Origin: a virus
Lineage: Duplodnaviria; Heunggongvirae; Uroviricota; Caudoviricetes
Length of the DNA stretch: 7,051 bases
Direction: 5' to 3' (one strand)
Virus record (IMG/VR): IMGVR_UViG_2663762857_000014
The translations under genes were made by a program, and so were the position numbers. Positions 232 through 7,051 of the stretch are shown in pieces (position 1 is the first letter of the stretch; the number at the start of each line of letters is the position of its first letter). The notes under the pieces were generated by a model. That model worked only from the letters and a program-made list of their open reading frames with translations. It had not been told where the DNA came from and made no database searches.

Positions 232-3200
232 ATGGGTAAAGGTGGCGGCAAGGCGCACACACCTCGTGAGGCGAAGGATAATCTCAAATCCACGCAGATG
301 ATGAGCGTGATTGATGCGATTGGTGAGGGACCGATAGAAGGTCCGGTGAAGGGACTGCAGAGTATCCTGGTGAACAAAACCCCGCTGACGGACACGGACG
401 GTAATCCCGTGATACACGGTGTGACGGCGGTCTGGCGCGCCGGGGAGCAGGAGCAGACACCACCGGAAGGCTTTGAGTCCTCCGGAGCTGAAACTGTACT
501 GGGCGTGGAAGTGACGAAGGCAAAACCGGTGACGCGCACCATTACGTCCGCGAACATTGACCGCCTGCGGGTTACCTTCGGGGTGCAGTCACTGGTGCAG
601 ACCACGTCAAAGGGTGACCGAAACCCGACATCCGTCCGCCTGCTGATTCAGTTACAGCGTAACGGTAACTGGGTGACAGAAAAGGATGTCACCATTAACG
701 GCAAGACCACCTCGCAGTTTCTGGCGTCGGTGATTCTGGATAATCTGCCTCCCCGTCCTTTTAACATCCGGATGGTCCGGGAGACGGCGGACAGCACCAC
801 GGACCAGTTGCAGAACAGAACACTCTGGTCATCGTACACCGAAATCATCGATGTGAAACAGTGCTACCCGAACACGGCGATTGTGGGGCTGCAGGTGGAT
901 GCGGAGCAGTTCGGTGGTCAGCAGATGACGGTGAACTACCATATCCGCGGTCGCATCATCCAGGTGCCGTCAAACTATGACCCGGAAAAACGCACCTACA
1001 GCGGTATCTGGGACGGCAGTCTGAAACCGGCATACAGCAACAACCCGGCCTGGTGCCTGTGGGACATGCTGACTCACCCGCGCTACGGGATGGGAAAACG
1101 CCTGGGGGCGGCGGATGTGGACAAGTGGGCGCTGTATGCCATCGGGCAGTACTGCGACCAGACGGTCCCGGATGGTTTCGGGGGCACAGAGCCGCGGATG
1201 ACCTTTAATGCGTACCTGGCACAACAGCGTAAGGCGTGGGACGTTCTCAGTGATTTCTGCTCGGCGATGCGCTGTATGCCGGTATGGAACGGCCAGACGC
1301 TGACGTTCGTTCAGGACCGCCAGTCGGATGTGGTGTGGCCGTACACGAACAGCGATGTGGTGGTGGATGATAACGGCGTGGGGTTCCGCTACAGCTTCAG
1401 TGCCCTGAAGGACCGGCACACGGCGGTGGAGGTGAATTACACCGACCCGCAGAACGGCTGGCAGACCTCCACGGAACTGGTGGAAGACCCGGAAGCCATA
1501 CTGCGCTACGGACGCAACCTGCTGAAGATGGATGCGTTCGGCTGCACCAGTCGCGGTCAGGCCCACCGTGCCGGGCTGTGGGTGATAAAGACAGAACTGC
1601 TGGAAACGCAGACGGTGGATTTCACACTCGGGTCACAGGGGCTGCGTCACACACCGGGTGACATTATTGAAATCTGTGATAACGACTATGCCGGGACTAT
1701 GACCGGCGGACGTATCCTGTCCATTGATGCTGCCACCCGCACCCTGACGCTGGACCGTGAGGTTACCCTGCCGGAGACAGGTACATCGGCGGTGAACCTG
1801 ATTAACGGCAGCGGTAAGCCGGTGAGTGTGGACATCACCGCACACCCCGCGCCGGACCGGATACAGGTCAGTACCCTGCCTGATGGTGTGGAGACATACG
1901 GGGTGTGGGGACTCTCCCTGCCGTCACTGCGCCGTCGCCTGTTCCGCTGTGTCTCCATCCGGGAAAACACGGACGGCACCTTTGCCATCACGGCAGTGCA
2001 GCACGTACCGGAAAAAGAAGCCATTGTGGATAACGGAGCCCGCTTTGAGCCGCAGTCAGGCACCCTGAACAGCGTTATCCCACCGGCAGTGCAGCACCTG
2101 ACGGTGGAGGTGAGCGCAGCTGACGGCCAGTATCTGGCGCTGGCGAAATGGGACACGCCGCGGGTGGTGAAGGGCGTGCGCTTCAGTCTGCGCCTGACCA
2201 GTGGAAGCGGTGAGAACAGCCGCCTGCTGACCACCGCCATCACTGCCGATACGGAGCACCGTTTCAGTGGCCTGCCTCTCGGGGAATACACCCTGACGGT
2301 CAGGGCGATTAACAGCTATGGCCAGCAGGGCGAACCCGCCACCACCACGTTCCGGATTAACGCACCGGCAGCGCCTGCCGGTGTTGAACTGACGCCGGGG
2401 TATTTTCAGATAACGGCGGTACCGCGTCTTGCGGTGTATGACCCGACGGTGCAGTTTGAGTTCTGGTTTTCGGAGGCAAAAATTGCAGACGCCGCACAGG
2501 TGGAAACCTCTGCCCGTTATCTGGGGACCGGCAGTCAGTGGAGTGTCTCCGGCCCGCACATTAAGCCCGGAAAGGATTTCTGGTTTTATGTGCGCAGCGT
2601 CAACCTGGTGGGTAAATCTGCTTTTGTGGAAGCCAGTGGACGGGCGAGCAATGATGCTGCGGGCTATCTGGAACTTTTCCGGGAAAAGATAGGAAAAACG
2701 CATCTGGCAGAGGCGCTGTGGGCAGAGATTGACAACAGTCAGCTGAAGGACGAGATGGCGGAAATGCAGACCACCATCACAGAAACCCGCAATGAAATCA
2801 CACAGACGGTCAGTAAAACGCTGGAGGACCAGAGCGCCACCATACAGCAGATACAGCGCGTGCAGAAGGACACAAATGATGACCTTGCTGCACTTTACAT
2901 GCTGAAGGTACAGAAAACAAAAAATGGCATACCCTATGTTGCCGGTATTGGAGCGGGGATTGAGGATACTGATGGCCAGCCCCTGAGCAACATACTGCTG
3001 CTGGCTGACCGTATTGCGATGATTAACCCGGAGGACGGCAACACCACGCCGTTATTTGTGGCGCAGGGGAATCAGTTGTTCATGAACGATGTGTTCCTGA
3101 AGCGGCTGTTTGCGGTGAGTATCACCTCGTCCGGCAATCCCCCTACGTTCTCCCTGACGCCGGAAGGCAGGCTGACGGCCCGTAATGCGGATATCAGCGG

Positions 3201-3762
3201 ACATATCAGTGCGAACTCGGGCACGCTGAATAATGTCGTGATAGCGGAGAACTGTACCATCAAAGGTACTCTGAGAGCGGAAAATATCATTGGCGATGTG
3301 GTGAAAACGCACAATGTCAGTCTTCCTGATCTCAGGGCTGCAGGGGAGCACAGACACGCGACAGAACGAACGGTTACTGTCATTGATGATCAGTCGTTTG
3401 ACCGGAATATTGTTATCCCGCCGGTTTTTTATTCCGGTATTATCTACAAAGGAAGTGATGGTGACGGTGCGACCTCAATCTGTACGCTGACGGTGAGTGT
3501 GAATGATCGGGTGGTGTTCAGCAAAACCTCATCCATCGGTACCAGGCGTACGTCAGGGGGATACCCCGTTCAGGAAGACACCATATATCCCGGGTCATCC
3601 ACTCCGTTCAGCTATTTCATGAGGATGGCGTCAGGGGGAGGTGATGTCAGGATCAAGTTCCGGATTGAGGTCATCTATTATGGAACTGCACCGGGTTTTA
3701 TGACCACAGGGATACAGATCACAACGATGAAGGCGTCAGCTTCAGGATTTGTGGAAAGTTAA
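232..3762 (+). CDS. J: Lambda J-like central tail fibre / host specificity protein (tail tip), 1176 aa
   Basis: 3531-nt ORF with ATG at 232 and Shine-Dalgarno AGGAG at 223-227 (5-nt spacer). The N-terminus [39 protein letters not shown] and internal stretches ([39 protein letters not shown]; [30 protein letters not shown]; [29 protein letters not shown]; [18 protein letters not shown]) match what I recall of phage lambda gpJ (about 1130 aa). Antisense ORFs across it are explained by its length and GC richness. Confidence 0.95.
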
Positions 3763-4082
3763 TCCCGGACGATCGTGATTGCCGGAAGGAGACAAAAACC
3801 GCACAGTATGCGCGGGTGCCTTTGGCTGATGGCCGGAGGGAACACCTGAAAGCCTGATGTGAAAAGGCCCCGAGTCAACTTCAATGTTAACCCGAGGCCC
3901 TGATCCGTCTATCTTAAGCAAGTGGCAGGTTAGCGCCTCTCCGTAATAAGGAGCAAGTGCTGTGTCGCAAAAACCACCGTGATTTGTATCACTGTAGTGC
4001 TCATTATCTGGATCACCCACCGTTCACTGTGTGAATTCCGGTTCCGGATAGCACCTTTTTAATCCTGTAAACCACGATTTTT

Positions 4083-4131: not shown

Positions 4132-5583
4132 ATGACAGTCAGAATATCGGGCGTGCTGAAGGACGGCACCGGGAAGCCGGTACCGGGATGCACCATTGAA
4201 CTGAAAGCCCTGCGCACCACGGAGACAGTGATTGTCACCACGGTGGCGCAGGGGCAGCCGGGGGAAACCGGCAGTTACAGTTTTGATGTGGAGCCGGGGT
4301 GGTACCGGGTGACGCTGAACACGGAAGGGTACGCCCCGTCGTATGTGGGTGACATTCTGGTGAAGGCGGATTCTGAGCCGGGAACGCTGAATAAATTTCT
4401 GATGGAACAGGATGAGGCGCAGTATTACCCGAAAGCGCTTGCAGAGCTGGAAGTGGTGGCAGCGGAAATCCTGAAGCGTGCTGAAGCGTCGGCGGCGAGT
4501 GCAGAGGAAGCGAAGAAACGGGCAGAGAATGCCCGGGGACCGGCGGGCGAGAAGGGGGACACAGGTCCACAGGGTGCCACAGGGGCACAGGGACCAGCCG
4601 GGGCAACGGGGGCGGTCGGACCAAAAGGTGAGCCGGGGCCAAAGGGAGAACGGGGAGAAACAGGTCCACAGGGACCGAAGGGCGATAAAGGTGACCCGGG
4701 CGGACCGCCGGGGCCGAAAGGTGACACCGGCCCACGTGGAGAGGCCGGACCACCCGGACCACAGGGTCCGGCAGGGCAAAGCGGCCCTAAAGGGGATAAA
4801 GGTGAACCCGGCGCAACAGGTCCGGCAGGTCCCGCAGGCCCTCGGGGAGAAACCGGCCCTGCAGGTCCTGCGGGTCCCGCAGGCAGTGTCGCCAGTGTTC
4901 CGGATGCCAGCACATTACAGAAAGGTGTTGTACAGCTGAGCAGCGATACCAACAGCGATGATGAAACAAAAGCGGCAACCCCAAAGGCTGTGAAAGCGGT
5001 AATGGCAGAAGTGCAGGCAGCAAAAACGAAGGCAGAAGAGGCAGCAACCCGGGCAGCAGTCCCCGGACCGAAGGGGGACAGGGGGGAACCTGGCGCACCT
5101 GGTGCAGTGGGGCCCGCAGGCCCACGGGGACCGGCTGGTGCAGCTGGTCCCAAAGGTGATGCAGGCCCGGCCGGACCCCGGGGTCAAAAAGGTGATACAG
5201 GACCTGCAGGTCCGCAGGGACCAGCTGGCCCGGCAGGCCCACAGGGGGTTGCCGGAAGGGACGGCAATGTTTCCACCGGGAAATATGCGGTTGGTTCTTA
5301 TGTTTTTGGCGTGTCCTCTGTCTATGCTGACGGCGAAGGCTTATTTTCATCAGGGATATATGAAAACATTCAGGGTAGCTCCATTGATCTGATTTCAATA
5401 CAGACAACACAAACAGGCGCATCAACACCAAATCAAATCTGGTTTTTGAAACTGGAGGAGGACATTCCGGGGGTGTGGCGGGCATTTAAACCCGCCGCAT
5501 ATATTGATCTGATGCCAGAAGGAATGCAAGGAGGAAAGAACTCGATGTTTAACTTTATTACTCTTTTCCAGCGGATAGCGTAA
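4132..5583 (+). CDS. stf: Side tail fibre protein (lambda Stf-like N-terminus) with collagen-like Gly-X-Y shaft, 483 aa
   Basis: ATG at 4132 with GGGGA 7-8 nt upstream. The N-terminus [26 protein letters not shown] closely resembles the lambda Stf N-terminus as I recall it ([26 protein letters not shown]). The motif [28 protein letters not shown] (aa 264-291) matches the conserved tail-fibre motif KGIVQLSSATNS...AATPKAVK. Two long G-X-Y runs occupy aa 136-251 and 311-377. A non-repetitive C-terminal domain of about 105 aa follows. Confidence 0.9.
4537..4884 (+). repeat. Collagen-like Gly-X-Y coding repeat block 1 within stf (about 38 triplets, one register break at [12 protein letters not shown])
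   Basis: Translation [116 protein letters not shown]. The DNA is a GC-rich 9-bp-periodic repeat, which explains the long stop-free antisense and out-of-frame ORFs in the track. Confidence 0.9.
5065..5262 (+). repeat. Collagen-like Gly-X-Y coding repeat block 2 within stf (about 22 triplets)
   Basis: Translation [68 protein letters not shown], immediately after the conserved KGVVQLSS...TPKAVK motif and an Ala/Lys-rich linker. Confidence 0.9.
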
Positions 5584-5594
5584 CGAGGTACGGC

Positions 5595-6188
5595 ATGATA
5601 ATAGCGATCAGTGCGGTTAAGGATCCGGTATATACCAGGCAGGGATGTATCAACTGTCTGGTGAAACTCACCGGAGTTGACGAGGAGGAGACGGACTGGC
5701 TTCCGTTTACGGCGACACCAACGGACGAAGCCCCTCATGGAAAAGAACTCTGGCAGGCACTGAACTCAGGTCAATATGGTCAAATCGCGCCGTATACTCA
5801 ACCGGAAGATGCGGTGGAAAAAGCCAGACAACAGAAAATTAATGAGATCAACGCCTGGCGTAATTCGATGGAAGCGGCGAACTACACGTTTGAGCACAAT
5901 GGGCGTAAATGGGACTACGGGAAGTCAACGCAGACGCGTCTTGAGCCGTCGGTGGCGGCAGCGAAAGCGGGGAAACTGCCGGAGGCGTTTTTCTGGACGG
6001 ATGCGGACAATAATGACGTACCGATGGACGCTGAAACACTGATTGCTCTGAGTGCTGCTGCAGAGCAGGCGATGTTTACCAAAGGTCTGGAAATTCATGT
6101 CAGACAGCGCACGATGAAAAAAGAGATTGAAGCGCTGGATGATGCGGAAGCTATACTGGCGTATAAGGTCGGCATGGCTGACAGGTGA
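5595..6188 (+). CDS. Putative tail fibre assembly protein / chaperone (Tfa-like by position), 197 aa
   Basis: ATG at 5595 with GAGG at 5586-5589 (5-nt spacer), 11 nt after the stf stop. Its size and position directly downstream of the side tail fibre gene match lambda tfa and other tail fibre assembly chaperones. I cannot confirm family membership by eye, so the function rests on synteny. Confidence 0.75.
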   Translation: MIIAISAVKDPVYTRQGCINCLVKLTGVDEEETDWLPFTATPTDEAPHGKELWQALNSGQYGQIAPYTQPEDAVEKARQQKINEINAWRNSMEAANYTFEHNGRKWDYGKSTQTRLEPSVAAAKAGKLPEAFFWTDADNNDVPMDAETLIALSAAAEQAMFTKGLEIHVRQRTMKKEIEALDDAEAILAYKVGMADR

Positions 6189-6213
6189 AAAAAAGAGGGG
6201 CGCTCCAGCCCCT
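6188..6213 (-). terminator. Intrinsic terminator-like hairpin abutting the tfa stop; canonical for leftward (minus-strand) transcription, possibly a weak bidirectional terminator
   Basis: Plus strand reads A7 (6188-6194), g, AGGGGC (6196-6201), 6-nt loop, GCCCCT (6208-6213). On the minus strand this is a 6-bp GC-rich stem followed by cTTTTTTT. On the plus strand the hairpin is followed by ttgctac, a poor U-tract. Confidence 0.5.
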
Positions 6214-6415
6214 TGCTACAAAGCTATGGCTAAATAAAGAATACTCAGGTCGAGGAAATAATCTGGCAATGATAATTAAAGGAGATGCAACGGCCTCCTT
6301 CACCCCTGTCAAAGATAAAAAACTGGGGAGTGCGTGCTCACCGAGAGCATGATACTTGTGGTTGATAGTTATTTTTATCCGGCGACAAAGATATTGAGAT
6401 GAGGGCGCGGATGCA

Positions 6416-6431
6416 ATACAGAATTTTCGTA
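6416..6431. repeat. Copy 1 of an exact 16-bp direct repeat ATACAGAATTTTCGTA, lying inside the 8-bp-arm inverted repeat ATGCAATA / TATTGCAT (6411-6437)
   Basis: Read directly; the second copy is at 6593-6608. Flanks differ immediately outside the 16 bp. Confidence 0.85.
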
Positions 6432-6484
6432 TTGCATGGTAACTGCTGATTCCTGAAACTGAAAGTCGTCATGAAACTGTAAGC

Positions 6485-6512
6485 GAAAAAACGGGGAGAC
6501 GGCACGCTCCCC
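6485..6512 (-). terminator. Intrinsic terminator oriented for minus-strand transcription
   Basis: Plus strand reads A6 (6486-6491), c, GGGGAG (6493-6498), 8-nt loop acggcacg, CTCCCC (6507-6512). The minus-strand transcript would be GGGGAG-loop-CUCCCC-G-UUUUUU. No U-tract follows the hairpin on the plus strand. Confidence 0.5.
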
Positions 6513-6592
6513 AAGGTCATACATGAGATAGTGGTGTTTTTATAGTCGAAAGAATAATTGCATAAAAAGAGTGTAAATTAAACATTCAGGGG

Positions 6593-6608
6593 ATACAGAA
6601 TTTTCGTA
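6593..6608. repeat. Copy 2 of the exact 16-bp direct repeat ATACAGAATTTTCGTA
   Basis: Identical to 6416-6431, 177 bp downstream. A weakly similar attgc..ctgaaa stretch follows both copies. Confidence 0.85.
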
Positions 6609-6644
6609 GGCTGAGGGATTGCTGAAAATAATTTAGTGCGTCCT

Positions 6645-6666
6645 TCAATGGTCATTCAATGGTCAT
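6645..6666. repeat. Perfect tandem duplication of an 11-bp unit (TCAATGGTCAT x2)
   Basis: Read directly: tcaatggtcat at 6645-6655 and again at 6656-6666. An 8-bp-arm inverted repeat ATTGTGCT / AGCACAAT (6670-6699, 14-nt spacer) follows. Confidence 0.85.
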
Positions 6667-6854
6667 CAGATTGTGCTGATGTAAACAGTTAAGCACAATT
6701 TGATTATTTGACTTTCTTCTTTTTGTGACTAACTTCACAATTAAAGATGTAACCGTATACAAATTGTTGATGAATAAAGAGACAGCATAAGTGGCAGGCC
6801 AGTCGTAATGCGGATATCCCTTCGCGAACGTGATATCACCGACGTTATAGTAAG

Positions 6855-6892
6855 GAAATTCCGAAAAACTTCATATTAAAATTCGGAATTTC
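6855..6892. promoter_or_regulatory. Perfect 11-bp inverted repeat GAAATTCCGAA-N16-TTCGGAATTTC directly upstream of an RBS; candidate operator or 5'-UTR hairpin
   Basis: Arms 6855-6865 and 6882-6892 are exact reverse complements. AGGAG at 6896-6900 and ATG at 6908 follow. A perfect 10-bp palindrome GTGATATCAC lies at 6830-6839, and a possible -10 TATAGT at 6846-6851. Confidence 0.4.
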
Positions 6893-6907
6893 TTCAGGAG
6901 TAAGCTC

Positions 6908-6985
6908 ATGAGAGCGGCGAGACATCAGATTTTCTTTATATATCCGATGTTGAGTTGTTTTATTTGTATACAGATAATTTTATAG
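6908..6985 (+). CDS. Hypothetical small ORF, 25 aa, hydrophobic (MRAARHQIFFIYPMLSCFICIQIIL); possible small membrane peptide or leader peptide
   Basis: ATG at 6908 preceded by AGGAG at 6896-6900 (7-nt spacer); TAG stop at 6983-6985. Ends 10 nt before the next ATG. The call rests on the strong RBS alone; the ORF is too short for composition statistics. Confidence 0.2.
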   Translation: MRAARHQIFFIYPMLSCFICIQIIL

Positions 6986-6995
6986 GGTATACCAC

Positions 6996-7051
6996 ATGAG
7001 CAAGAAATTTGCAAATACTATTCTTTCTTCTGCTGTTGCCGGATTGATGTT
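6996..7051 (+). CDS. Possible 5' end of a gene running off the window; the N-terminus MSKKFANTILSSAVAGLM looks like a signal peptide (secreted, fimbrial or outer-membrane protein?)
   Basis: ATG at 6996 followed by two lysines and a hydrophobic stretch, the typical n-region and h-region of a Sec signal peptide. No classic SD directly upstream, so it may be translationally coupled to the small ORF. Only 18 codons are visible. Confidence 0.3.
   Translation, partial: MSKKFANTILSSAVAGLM

Follow-up and report, generated by a model that had tools for sequence, protein, structure and literature searches.

The stretch of DNA analysed here, called the window below, comprises 7,051 nucleotides of the IMG/VR virus record IMGVR_UViG_2663762857_000014 and spans the distal tail region in a lambdoid prophage of E. 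coli. Its genes, and the gap with which this report is concerned, are arranged as follows:

232-3762: homologue of tip attachment protein J.
4132-5583: tail fibre gene with collagen repeats.
5595-6188: gene for a DUF4376 protein.
Between the DUF4376 gene and the eib-type gene: gap of about 800 nt without an annotated gene (the 807-nt intergenic stretch).
6996-7051, plus strand: first 18 codons of an eib-type, YadA-like trimeric autotransporter gene, truncated by the end of the window and beginning with the signal peptide MSKKFANTILSSAVAGLM...

A full-length homologue of this last gene has a YadA_anchor domain. Over its last 650 nt the window matches a prophage of E. coli 2015C-3121 at 99.7% identity, and the same region occurs in 27 of 5,426 complete E. 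coli genomes, in one to five copies each and invariably with a YadA-family gene downstream. It is also 92-97% identical to the region 5' of eibA in prophage P-EibA of strain ECOR-9 (GenBank AF151091), where the gene order J, lom, tail fibre, orf-191A (DUF4376) and eibA matches that of the window. The two leaders share 97% identity, and the downstream allele in the window (MSKKFANTIL...) differs from eibA (MSKKFTKAVL...). Within the collections that were searched, the leader turned up in E. coli genomes, in phages isolated on E. coli and in viral contigs without assigned origin from gut metagenomes and IMG/VR, and nowhere else. Species-representative genomes, scanned with the protein as guide, yielded no more than distant YadA-anchor proteins (Neisseria, Proteus, Edwardsiella and others), and the anchor motif of the leader is missing from all of these.

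The comparison draws on 41 distinct versions of the 155 nt before the adhesin ATG, taken from E. coli genomes, phage records, IMG/VR and metagenomes. They fall into five leader lineages at about 70% identity, namely A (the window and eibA), B, C, D and E (divided into E1 and E2, with eibG of JNEC-KY208 in E2). The sample consists of closely related E. coli prophage copies, and its effective sequence number is 2.2.

Several observations concern the surroundings of the leader. The collagen-like triple-helix repeats of the tail fibre gene (4250-5250) bring local G+C to about 65%, with a strong AT skew. In L001, a second YadA-like gene (15214-16898) of the same prophage region follows a Hok/Gef toxin gene, and the sequence upstream of it is unrelated. 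The upstream region specific to lineage A contains a tandem 11-nt repeat at 6640-6661 (GTCCTTCAATG/GTCATTCAATG), followed at 6665-6704 by a 13-nt inverted repeat (ATCAGATTGTGCT / AGCACAATTTGAT, 92% complementary). On the minus strand of the intergenic region, four terminator-like hairpins with T-runs were found by scanning against 0.4 expected (6513-6492, 6302-6277 and 6213-6196 are examples), an indication of transcription units on that strand between the tail genes and eib. One candidate minus-strand small RNA (6700-6485) has a terminator-like end, yet its structure is ordinary (z = -0.2), and it was set aside.

Within the final stretch before the adhesin gene, the following elements can be distinguished:

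6830-6839, no strand: 10-bp perfect palindrome GTGATATCAC, 6 nt 5' of the -10-like hexamer.
6846-6851, plus strand: -10-like hexamer TATAGT, candidate leader promoter, without a recognisable -35.
6853-6894, plus strand: hairpin H1, a 13-bp stem (6853-6865 with 6882-6894) around a 16-nt A/U-rich loop (6866-6881); it includes the 11-bp repeat.
6896-6900, plus strand: Shine-Dalgarno sequence AGGAG serving the upstream ORF, 7 nt ahead of its ATG at 6908 and situated in the single-stranded linker that follows H1.
6904-6910, plus strand: 5' strand of helix P0, GCUCAUG, containing the AUG of the upstream ORF and pairing with 6995-7001 in minimum-energy and ensemble folds.
6908-6985, plus strand: 25-codon upstream ORF (MRAARHQIFFIYPMLSCFICIQIIL), which traverses H2 and stops 10 nt before the eib ATG.
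6912-6960, plus strand: hairpin H2, with an outer stem (6912-6918/6954-6960) and an inner stem (6921-6930/6942-6951), followed by a U-rich tract.
6962-6975, no strand: palindrome ATTTGTATACAGAT (core TTTGTATACA, 6963-6972), candidate mini-hairpin P3 or protein site.
6995-7001, plus strand: 3' strand of helix P0, CAUGAGC, containing the eib AUG, which is predicted to be unpaired at only 0.01-0.02.

An earlier note on this DNA, made from the letters alone, had drawn attention to the palindrome, to the 11-bp inverted repeat at 6855-6892 (GAAATTCCGAA at 6855-6865 and TTCGGAATTTC at 6882-6892, with 16 nt between), to TATAGT as a candidate -10 and to a strong Shine-Dalgarno sequence at 6896. All four were read and placed correctly. 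Both dyads had been described as lying between TATAGT and the Shine-Dalgarno sequence; this holds for the inverted repeat, but the palindrome lies upstream of the hexamer. The "downstream ORFs" of that description are the 25-codon upstream ORF and the eib-type adhesin gene starting at 6996.

The inverted repeat is non-random. The whole window holds one perfect 11-bp inverted repeat with a loop of 3-30 nt against 0.043 expected (any such repeat occurs in 3% of shuffles), and for the intergenic stretch alone the expectation falls to 0.0075 (any in 0.45% of shuffles). As RNA the repeat extends to 13 pairs including one G.U, and folding in silico, a step that the earlier note had recommended, yields a stable stem-loop of -17.8 kcal/mol in a 66-nt context (z = -3.7), a stability reached by none of 200 shuffles. 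Nor is the repeat new, since it is exactly the 38-nt 'stem_loop' feature annotated upstream of eibA in the GenBank record of 2000. The Eib papers that were searched contain nothing on a promoter, leader or stem-loop.

Comparison across lineages gives this hairpin a more complicated character. In a MAFFT alignment of the 41 leaders, the 13 H1 pairs are paired in 76.9% of cases, and sliding the partner one column along brings this down to 56-61%, a high background that reflects the A/U-rich arms; five of the 13 pairs have changed on both sides, and the covariation score is 0.194 compared with at most 0.111 in the slid controls. A covariance-model alignment, which leans towards the structure supplied to it, gives the same picture. 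Roughly half of the sequences have a disrupted G-C core. The 5' arms of lineages A and E1 differ at four positions, three of which are compensated in the 3' arm (G-C to A-U, A-U to U-A and U-A to A-U). Predicted stabilities differ widely among lineages:

H1, lineage A: -13.8 kcal/mol, z about -4.5.
H1, lineage E1: -12 to -13.6 kcal/mol; the E1 version is followed by a U-run.
H1, two C variants: -10.2 kcal/mol, with different arm sequences.
H1, lineage D: -7.3 kcal/mol, the stem having moved onto the GGA of the upstream ribosome site, which it covers.
H1, lineages B, E2 and most of C: weak or essentially absent.

In lineages A, E1 and D and in C-L165, stable hairpins with differing arms are built around one conserved loop, and this A/U-rich loop is better conserved than the arms, so that a simple stabiliser hairpin does not account for the pattern. 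As far as the aligned sequences can tell, H1 is an element whose arms vary while their complementarity appears to be repeatedly kept or re-created, in some lineages only.

It is unlikely, on balance, that the inverted repeat is a lineage-specific accident without function (a small local inverted duplication in A/T-rich DNA, for example) that has simply been carried along with the eib module. Such an accident would suit the absence of H1 from several lineages with functional eib genes, the high pairing of the A/U-rich arms even in slid controls, and polymorphism within lineage A, where one of 26 arm sites and three of 16 loop sites vary, a difference that is not significant (p = 0.15). It would sit poorly with the rarity of a perfect 11-bp repeat in an intergenic stretch of this length, with the recurrence of stable but differently built hairpins flanking the same loop, and with the three compensated changes between A and E1.

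Whatever H1 contributes, it is not indispensable. The eibG leader (L267 1855-2005, JNEC-KY208) is without H1, without the 10-bp palindrome and without the AUG of the upstream ORF; it has the long-range helix, H2 and the invariant palindrome. EibG is reportedly regulated much like the Eib proteins of ECOR-9 (PMC5450701), responding to static growth, temperature and medium much as they do (PMC5450701, PMC4352079). Because a leader that dispenses with H1 thus serves a protein regulated alike, H1 is not the main regulatory element and is at most an accessory one.

The more widely shared part of the leader lies further downstream. In the minimum-energy fold of every lineage, helix P0 closes a domain containing H2 and the invariant palindrome by pairing a segment 5' of H2 with the ribosome-binding site or start codon of eib. 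For the window, these predictions make P0 (6904-6910 with 6995-7001), and not H1, the element that would occlude start codons. The pairing strands differ from lineage to lineage:

P0, lineage A: GCUCAUG:CAUGAGC, joining both AUGs.
P0, lineage B: the region of the H1 5' arm pairs with AGGA..UAUC.
P0, lineage C: AUACCCU.UAUGAAA:UUUCAUAGGGUAU.
P0, lineage D: CCUCAUG:CAUGAGG.
P0, lineage E: UGGA.AUAUCCUG:CAGGAUAU.CCA.

Equivalents of P0 are found in L004, L005, L006, L173 and L178. When the strands of different lineages are paired with one another in a duplex matrix, the cognate pair gives the stablest duplex of its row in five cases out of six, and against shuffled sequences P0 reaches p <= 0.004 in C, D and E, 0.04 in B, and 0.10 in A taken alone. 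In the predicted folds, then, it is P0 that would occlude the ribosome-binding site, and it does so with lineage-specific covariation. Folding and sequence comparison together indicate that this compensation shows structural selection acting on an RNA of at least about 6895-7001 as one molecule; if so, the transcript starts upstream of about 6895. In the ensemble predicted for the window both AUGs are 97-99% paired at 23-42 C, whichever 5' end is assumed. The predicted ensembles at 23, 37 and 42 C leave both AUGs at most 0.03 unpaired and show no melting of the kind expected of an RNA thermometer between about 25 and 42 C, a result that belongs to the thermodynamic model; at 23 C the level of EibG protein is reportedly far lower (PMC4352079).

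Inside the domain closed by P0, H2 is predicted to be stable in all lineages with differing sequences (CCGAAAUACAUCAGAU/AUCUGAUGUAUUUCGG in D, GGCAACG..GUGUCAG/CUGACAC.CGUUGC in C), and its inner helix is 86% paired in the covariance-model alignment, with four pairs changed on both sides. The palindrome core TTTGTATACA is invariant in 41 of 41 leaders at a fixed position, -33 from the adhesin ATG, and is the most conserved element of the region. A half copy of it, GTATACAAAT, stands at 6755-6764 in lineage A only. A degenerate DNA pattern drawn around the palindrome and scanned over viral contigs was rejected as far too unspecific, with at least 120 matches of which just three were related to the window. 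The spacer between Shine-Dalgarno and ATG of the adhesin gene (6987-6994) carries a lineage-specific 8-bp palindrome of its own: GGTATACC in A and C, GATATATC in B and GGATATCC in E; L006 and L173 carry the equivalents.

RNAalifold on the plain MAFFT alignment recovered none of H1, H2 and P0, because the register shifts between lineages, and its sole output was a 5-bp mini-hairpin in the palindrome; the evidence for structure comes instead from the per-lineage folds, the cross-lineage duplex matrix and the covariance-model alignment. Rfam 15 gives nothing better than E = 4 for 6100-7051 and nothing at E <= 1 for five loci of the other lineages.

The same structures could in principle belong to a separate small RNA or an attenuated leader. 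The TATAGT transcript would then mostly end at H2 and its U-tract (about 6960), giving an RNA of about 100 nt with H1 as its 5' hairpin, and eib would depend on read-through or on a weak promoter that overlaps the palindrome. Hfq-dependent small RNAs combine a 5' hairpin, a single-stranded A/U-rich segment and a terminal hairpin with a U-tail, an architecture that the leader resembles; H2 is found in all lineages with U-rich sequence after it (T8 in lineage B), and a promoter-like site, TTGAGT-17-GATAAT, was picked up by scanning at 6950-6978. Even so, an arrangement of this sort seems improbable. H2 was not called in the terminator scan of the plus strand, on account of its 11-nt loop and G.U-rich outer stem; the tract after it is poor in U in lineages C and E; neither the -35 nor the -10 of the internal promoter is conserved; and the covariation of P0 needs the region 5' of H2 and the eib ribosome-binding site to be on one RNA.

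At the other end of the leader, the palindrome GTGATATCAC has little to distinguish it. The window has 11 perfect 10-bp palindromes where dinucleotide shuffles give 6.5, and the intergenic stretch holds one, where 1.0 is expected. The sequence is partly retained in lineage B (cGGATATCAC) and in E (GTGACTACAC, with its symmetry lost), and has no counterpart in C or D. It reflects either chance or a detail of the promoter spacer that is peculiar to certain lineages. Readings as a CRP, FNR, IHF, LexA or MerR-type site failed on spacing or consensus. Another palindrome, GGATATCC, occurs at 6812-6819, 19 bp upstream of GTGATATCAC, and the segment 6755-6992, within 240 nt before the eib ATG, gathers three of the four GTATAC sites and two of the four GATATC sites of the window.

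The -10-like hexamer has fared better in evolution. Its T1, A2 and T6 are constant in all five lineages (TATAGT, TACAGT, TACACT, TAATGT), at -147 to -160 from the adhesin ATG, and on sequence grounds TATAGT would be the best candidate promoter; a consensus promoter scan did not call it, the -35 being missing. A boundary of homology at the promoter was also sought, but upstream identity (0.43-0.70) against that of the leader (0.67-0.74) stands on a high background and does not discriminate. The 168-bp upstream fragment used for eibG complementation (PMC13534694) begins only about 20 nt 5' of the -10-like TAATGT.

It is against this background that one of the earlier note's two possibilities, an operator for a dimeric regulator, has to be judged. 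In its broader form the palindrome, the inverted repeat or both would bind a dimeric or tetrameric regulator at the eib promoter, perhaps as a target of IbrAB. Sandt and co-workers reportedly found in 2002 that eib expression in lysogens requires IbrAB acting in trans, and dyads flanking a conserved -10-like hexamer that has no -35 do suggest dependence on a factor; the first 8 bases of GATATCACCGAC are, moreover, common to lineages A and B at equal distance from the -10. Operators of dimeric helix-turn-helix proteins, however, consist of two short half-sites about one helical turn apart and conserved among homologous promoters. Here the palindrome occurs at chance frequency and its symmetry is missing in other lineages, while the arms of the inverted repeat lie 27 bp apart, centre to centre, and change in sequence with their complementarity retained, where the half-sites of one protein should be conserved. 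The eibG leader is without either dyad, and the only invariant palindrome of the region is TTTGTATACA at -33, which from its conservation would appear a much better candidate for an operator, or for recognition as RNA, than GTGATATCAC. An operator at the two dyads is accordingly quite improbable. Arms that vary yet stay complementary, their spacing of 27 bp, and a G.U pair at the base of H1 (G6854.U6893) that is compatible with RNA of the plus strand only, together favour a nucleic-acid structure over a protein operator.

That H1 is the intrinsic terminator of the upstream late (tail fibre) operon is scarcely credible: it does lie downstream of the last tail gene, and its E1 version has a U-run, but in the window 665 nt separate it from the DUF4376 stop. 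Where an intrinsic terminator has a G+C-rich stem, a loop of 3-8 nt and U residues immediately behind the stem, H1 has an A/U-rich stem, 16 nt in its loop and then UUCAGGAG in place of a U-tract, and the scan does not list it on the plus strand.

What remains is a reading, to which we attach moderate confidence, of H1 as an accessory, 5'-proximal stem-loop in the leader RNA of a putative prophage moron, the eib-type adhesin gene, ahead of the domain formed by P0 and H2. The leader would probably start just downstream of TATAGT, near 6858, which would put H1 at the 5' end or within a few nucleotides of it; with such a start, eight of the 13 pairs lie within the RNA and the stem is still predicted to form. 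There would follow the exposed AGGAG, the 25-codon upstream ORF and a closed domain in which P0 pairs the AUG of the upstream ORF with that of eib, enclosing H2 and the invariant palindrome. The lack of a -35 at TATAGT weighs against this reading in its detail, and a start inside or downstream of H1 is also compatible with the observations.

The earlier note had offered, as an alternative to its operator, a 5'-UTR hairpin that gates translation. The hairpin half of that suggestion holds up better than the operator, given the compensatory changes between A and E1; the gating half does not, since the hairpin leaves the ribosome-binding site uncovered, with AGGAG about 55% unpaired in the predicted ensemble. 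The effect of H1 on this site may be indirect. Disrupting the 3' arm in silico, which frees the UUCC of the 5' arm, lowers the accessibility of the upstream-ORF Shine-Dalgarno sequence from 0.55 to 0.22, and disrupting the 5' arm raises it to 0.73. Taken with the predicted position at the 5' end, these changes suggest an accessory role for H1 as a 5' stabiliser or folding insulator, which would sequester the UUCC 'anti-SD' and so leave the ribosome site of the upstream ORF open.

Translation of the upstream ORF, or some other signal, could then open P0 and H2 and allow eib to be translated. For this window, opening coupled to translation is plausible. Comparable upstream ORFs run through H2 in lineages C (25 codons) and D (22 codons); in B and E, eibG included, the ORF is absent or has three codons, and for that reason coupled opening is not a general mechanism. 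The peptide is no more conserved than nucleotide constraints explain, and the Shine-Dalgarno sequence is AAGAG in two of 16 lineage-A variants. In the variants L161 and L234 of lineage A, a 1-nt insertion (column 155, alignment A3) makes the TGA of the upstream ORF overlap the adhesin ATG as ATGA; such a stop/start overlap is the classic arrangement for translational coupling.

Considered as a whole, the leader with its P0, H2 and invariant palindrome is a candidate, on the evidence of the predicted folds, for an undescribed but conventional cis element that occludes a ribosome-binding site, in which H1 itself is an ordinary and minor, lineage-specific part. A wider proposal can be put forward only tentatively. 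The roughly 150 nt from the -10-like hexamer to the eib ATG, with H1, the start of the upstream ORF, P0, H2 and the invariant UUUGUAUACA, might represent an undescribed family of cis-regulatory leader RNAs of prophage genes for Eib/YadA-like adhesins, keeping the adhesin untranslated until a signal opens P0 and bearing H1 as a lineage-variable 5' module. Translation of the upstream ORF could act as that signal, as could a protein or small RNA recognising the invariant palindrome, possibly as part of activation by IbrAB. A 3.2-fold change in mRNA is reported alongside a much larger change in protein (PMC4352079), a disparity that is compatible with a post-transcriptional layer of control, although this interpretation is ours and not that of the cited study.

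The attraction of such a leader lies in the biology of the proteins it precedes. If it controls translation, P0, the upstream ORF and the invariant palindrome would offer a concrete, mutable target for explaining the control of Eib. The Eib adhesins, which prophages encode, bind the Fc part of immunoglobulin, make their hosts serum-resistant and underlie the chain-like adherence of Shiga-toxin-producing E. coli. They are expressed under narrow conditions: levels are high when cultures are static, at 37 C or in stationary phase, and lysogens need IbrAB for expression; we know of no cis element defined for this control.

Among known systems, phage morons supply the frame of genome organisation. 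The term covers non-essential genes for lysogenic conversion, such as lom and bor of lambda, that have been inserted after tail genes and are expressed autonomously from flanking signals of their own. The adhesin gene shares with them its place after the tail fibre genes, its own upstream non-coding region and a downstream stem-loop (annotated in AF151091); the concept is one of genome organisation and is uninformative on the mechanism of a hairpin. Closer to mechanism are the rpoS leader, which is opened by DsrA, RprA and ArcZ, and attenuation of the ermC type. There too, an upstream segment pairs with the Shine-Dalgarno or AUG of the main gene across an intervening hairpin, and in lineages A, C and D an upstream ORF passes through the structure. 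The differences are that this ORF is missing in B and E, that the sequences are unrelated and have no Rfam match, and that the trigger is here only hypothetical.

For H1, the stem-loop of the ompA 5' UTR, which protects against RNase E, offers a comparison, since in either case a stable stem-loop, for H1 a predicted one, lies close to the 5' end of the leader or at it and leaves free the ribosome site downstream. Compared with stabilisers of the ompA type, H1 has an unusually large loop (16 nt) that is better conserved than its stem, is dispensable in some lineages and has a 5' end that is predicted only. The remaining likeness is one of identity. The 'stem_loop' entry at 3777-3814 of AF151091 (P-EibA, ECOR-9; Sandt and Hill, 2000) was deposited with no function given and ahead of another eib allele than that of the window, and it consists of the same 38 nt, GAAATTCCGAA-N16-TTCGGAATTTC, at the same distance from eib and in the same prophage context.
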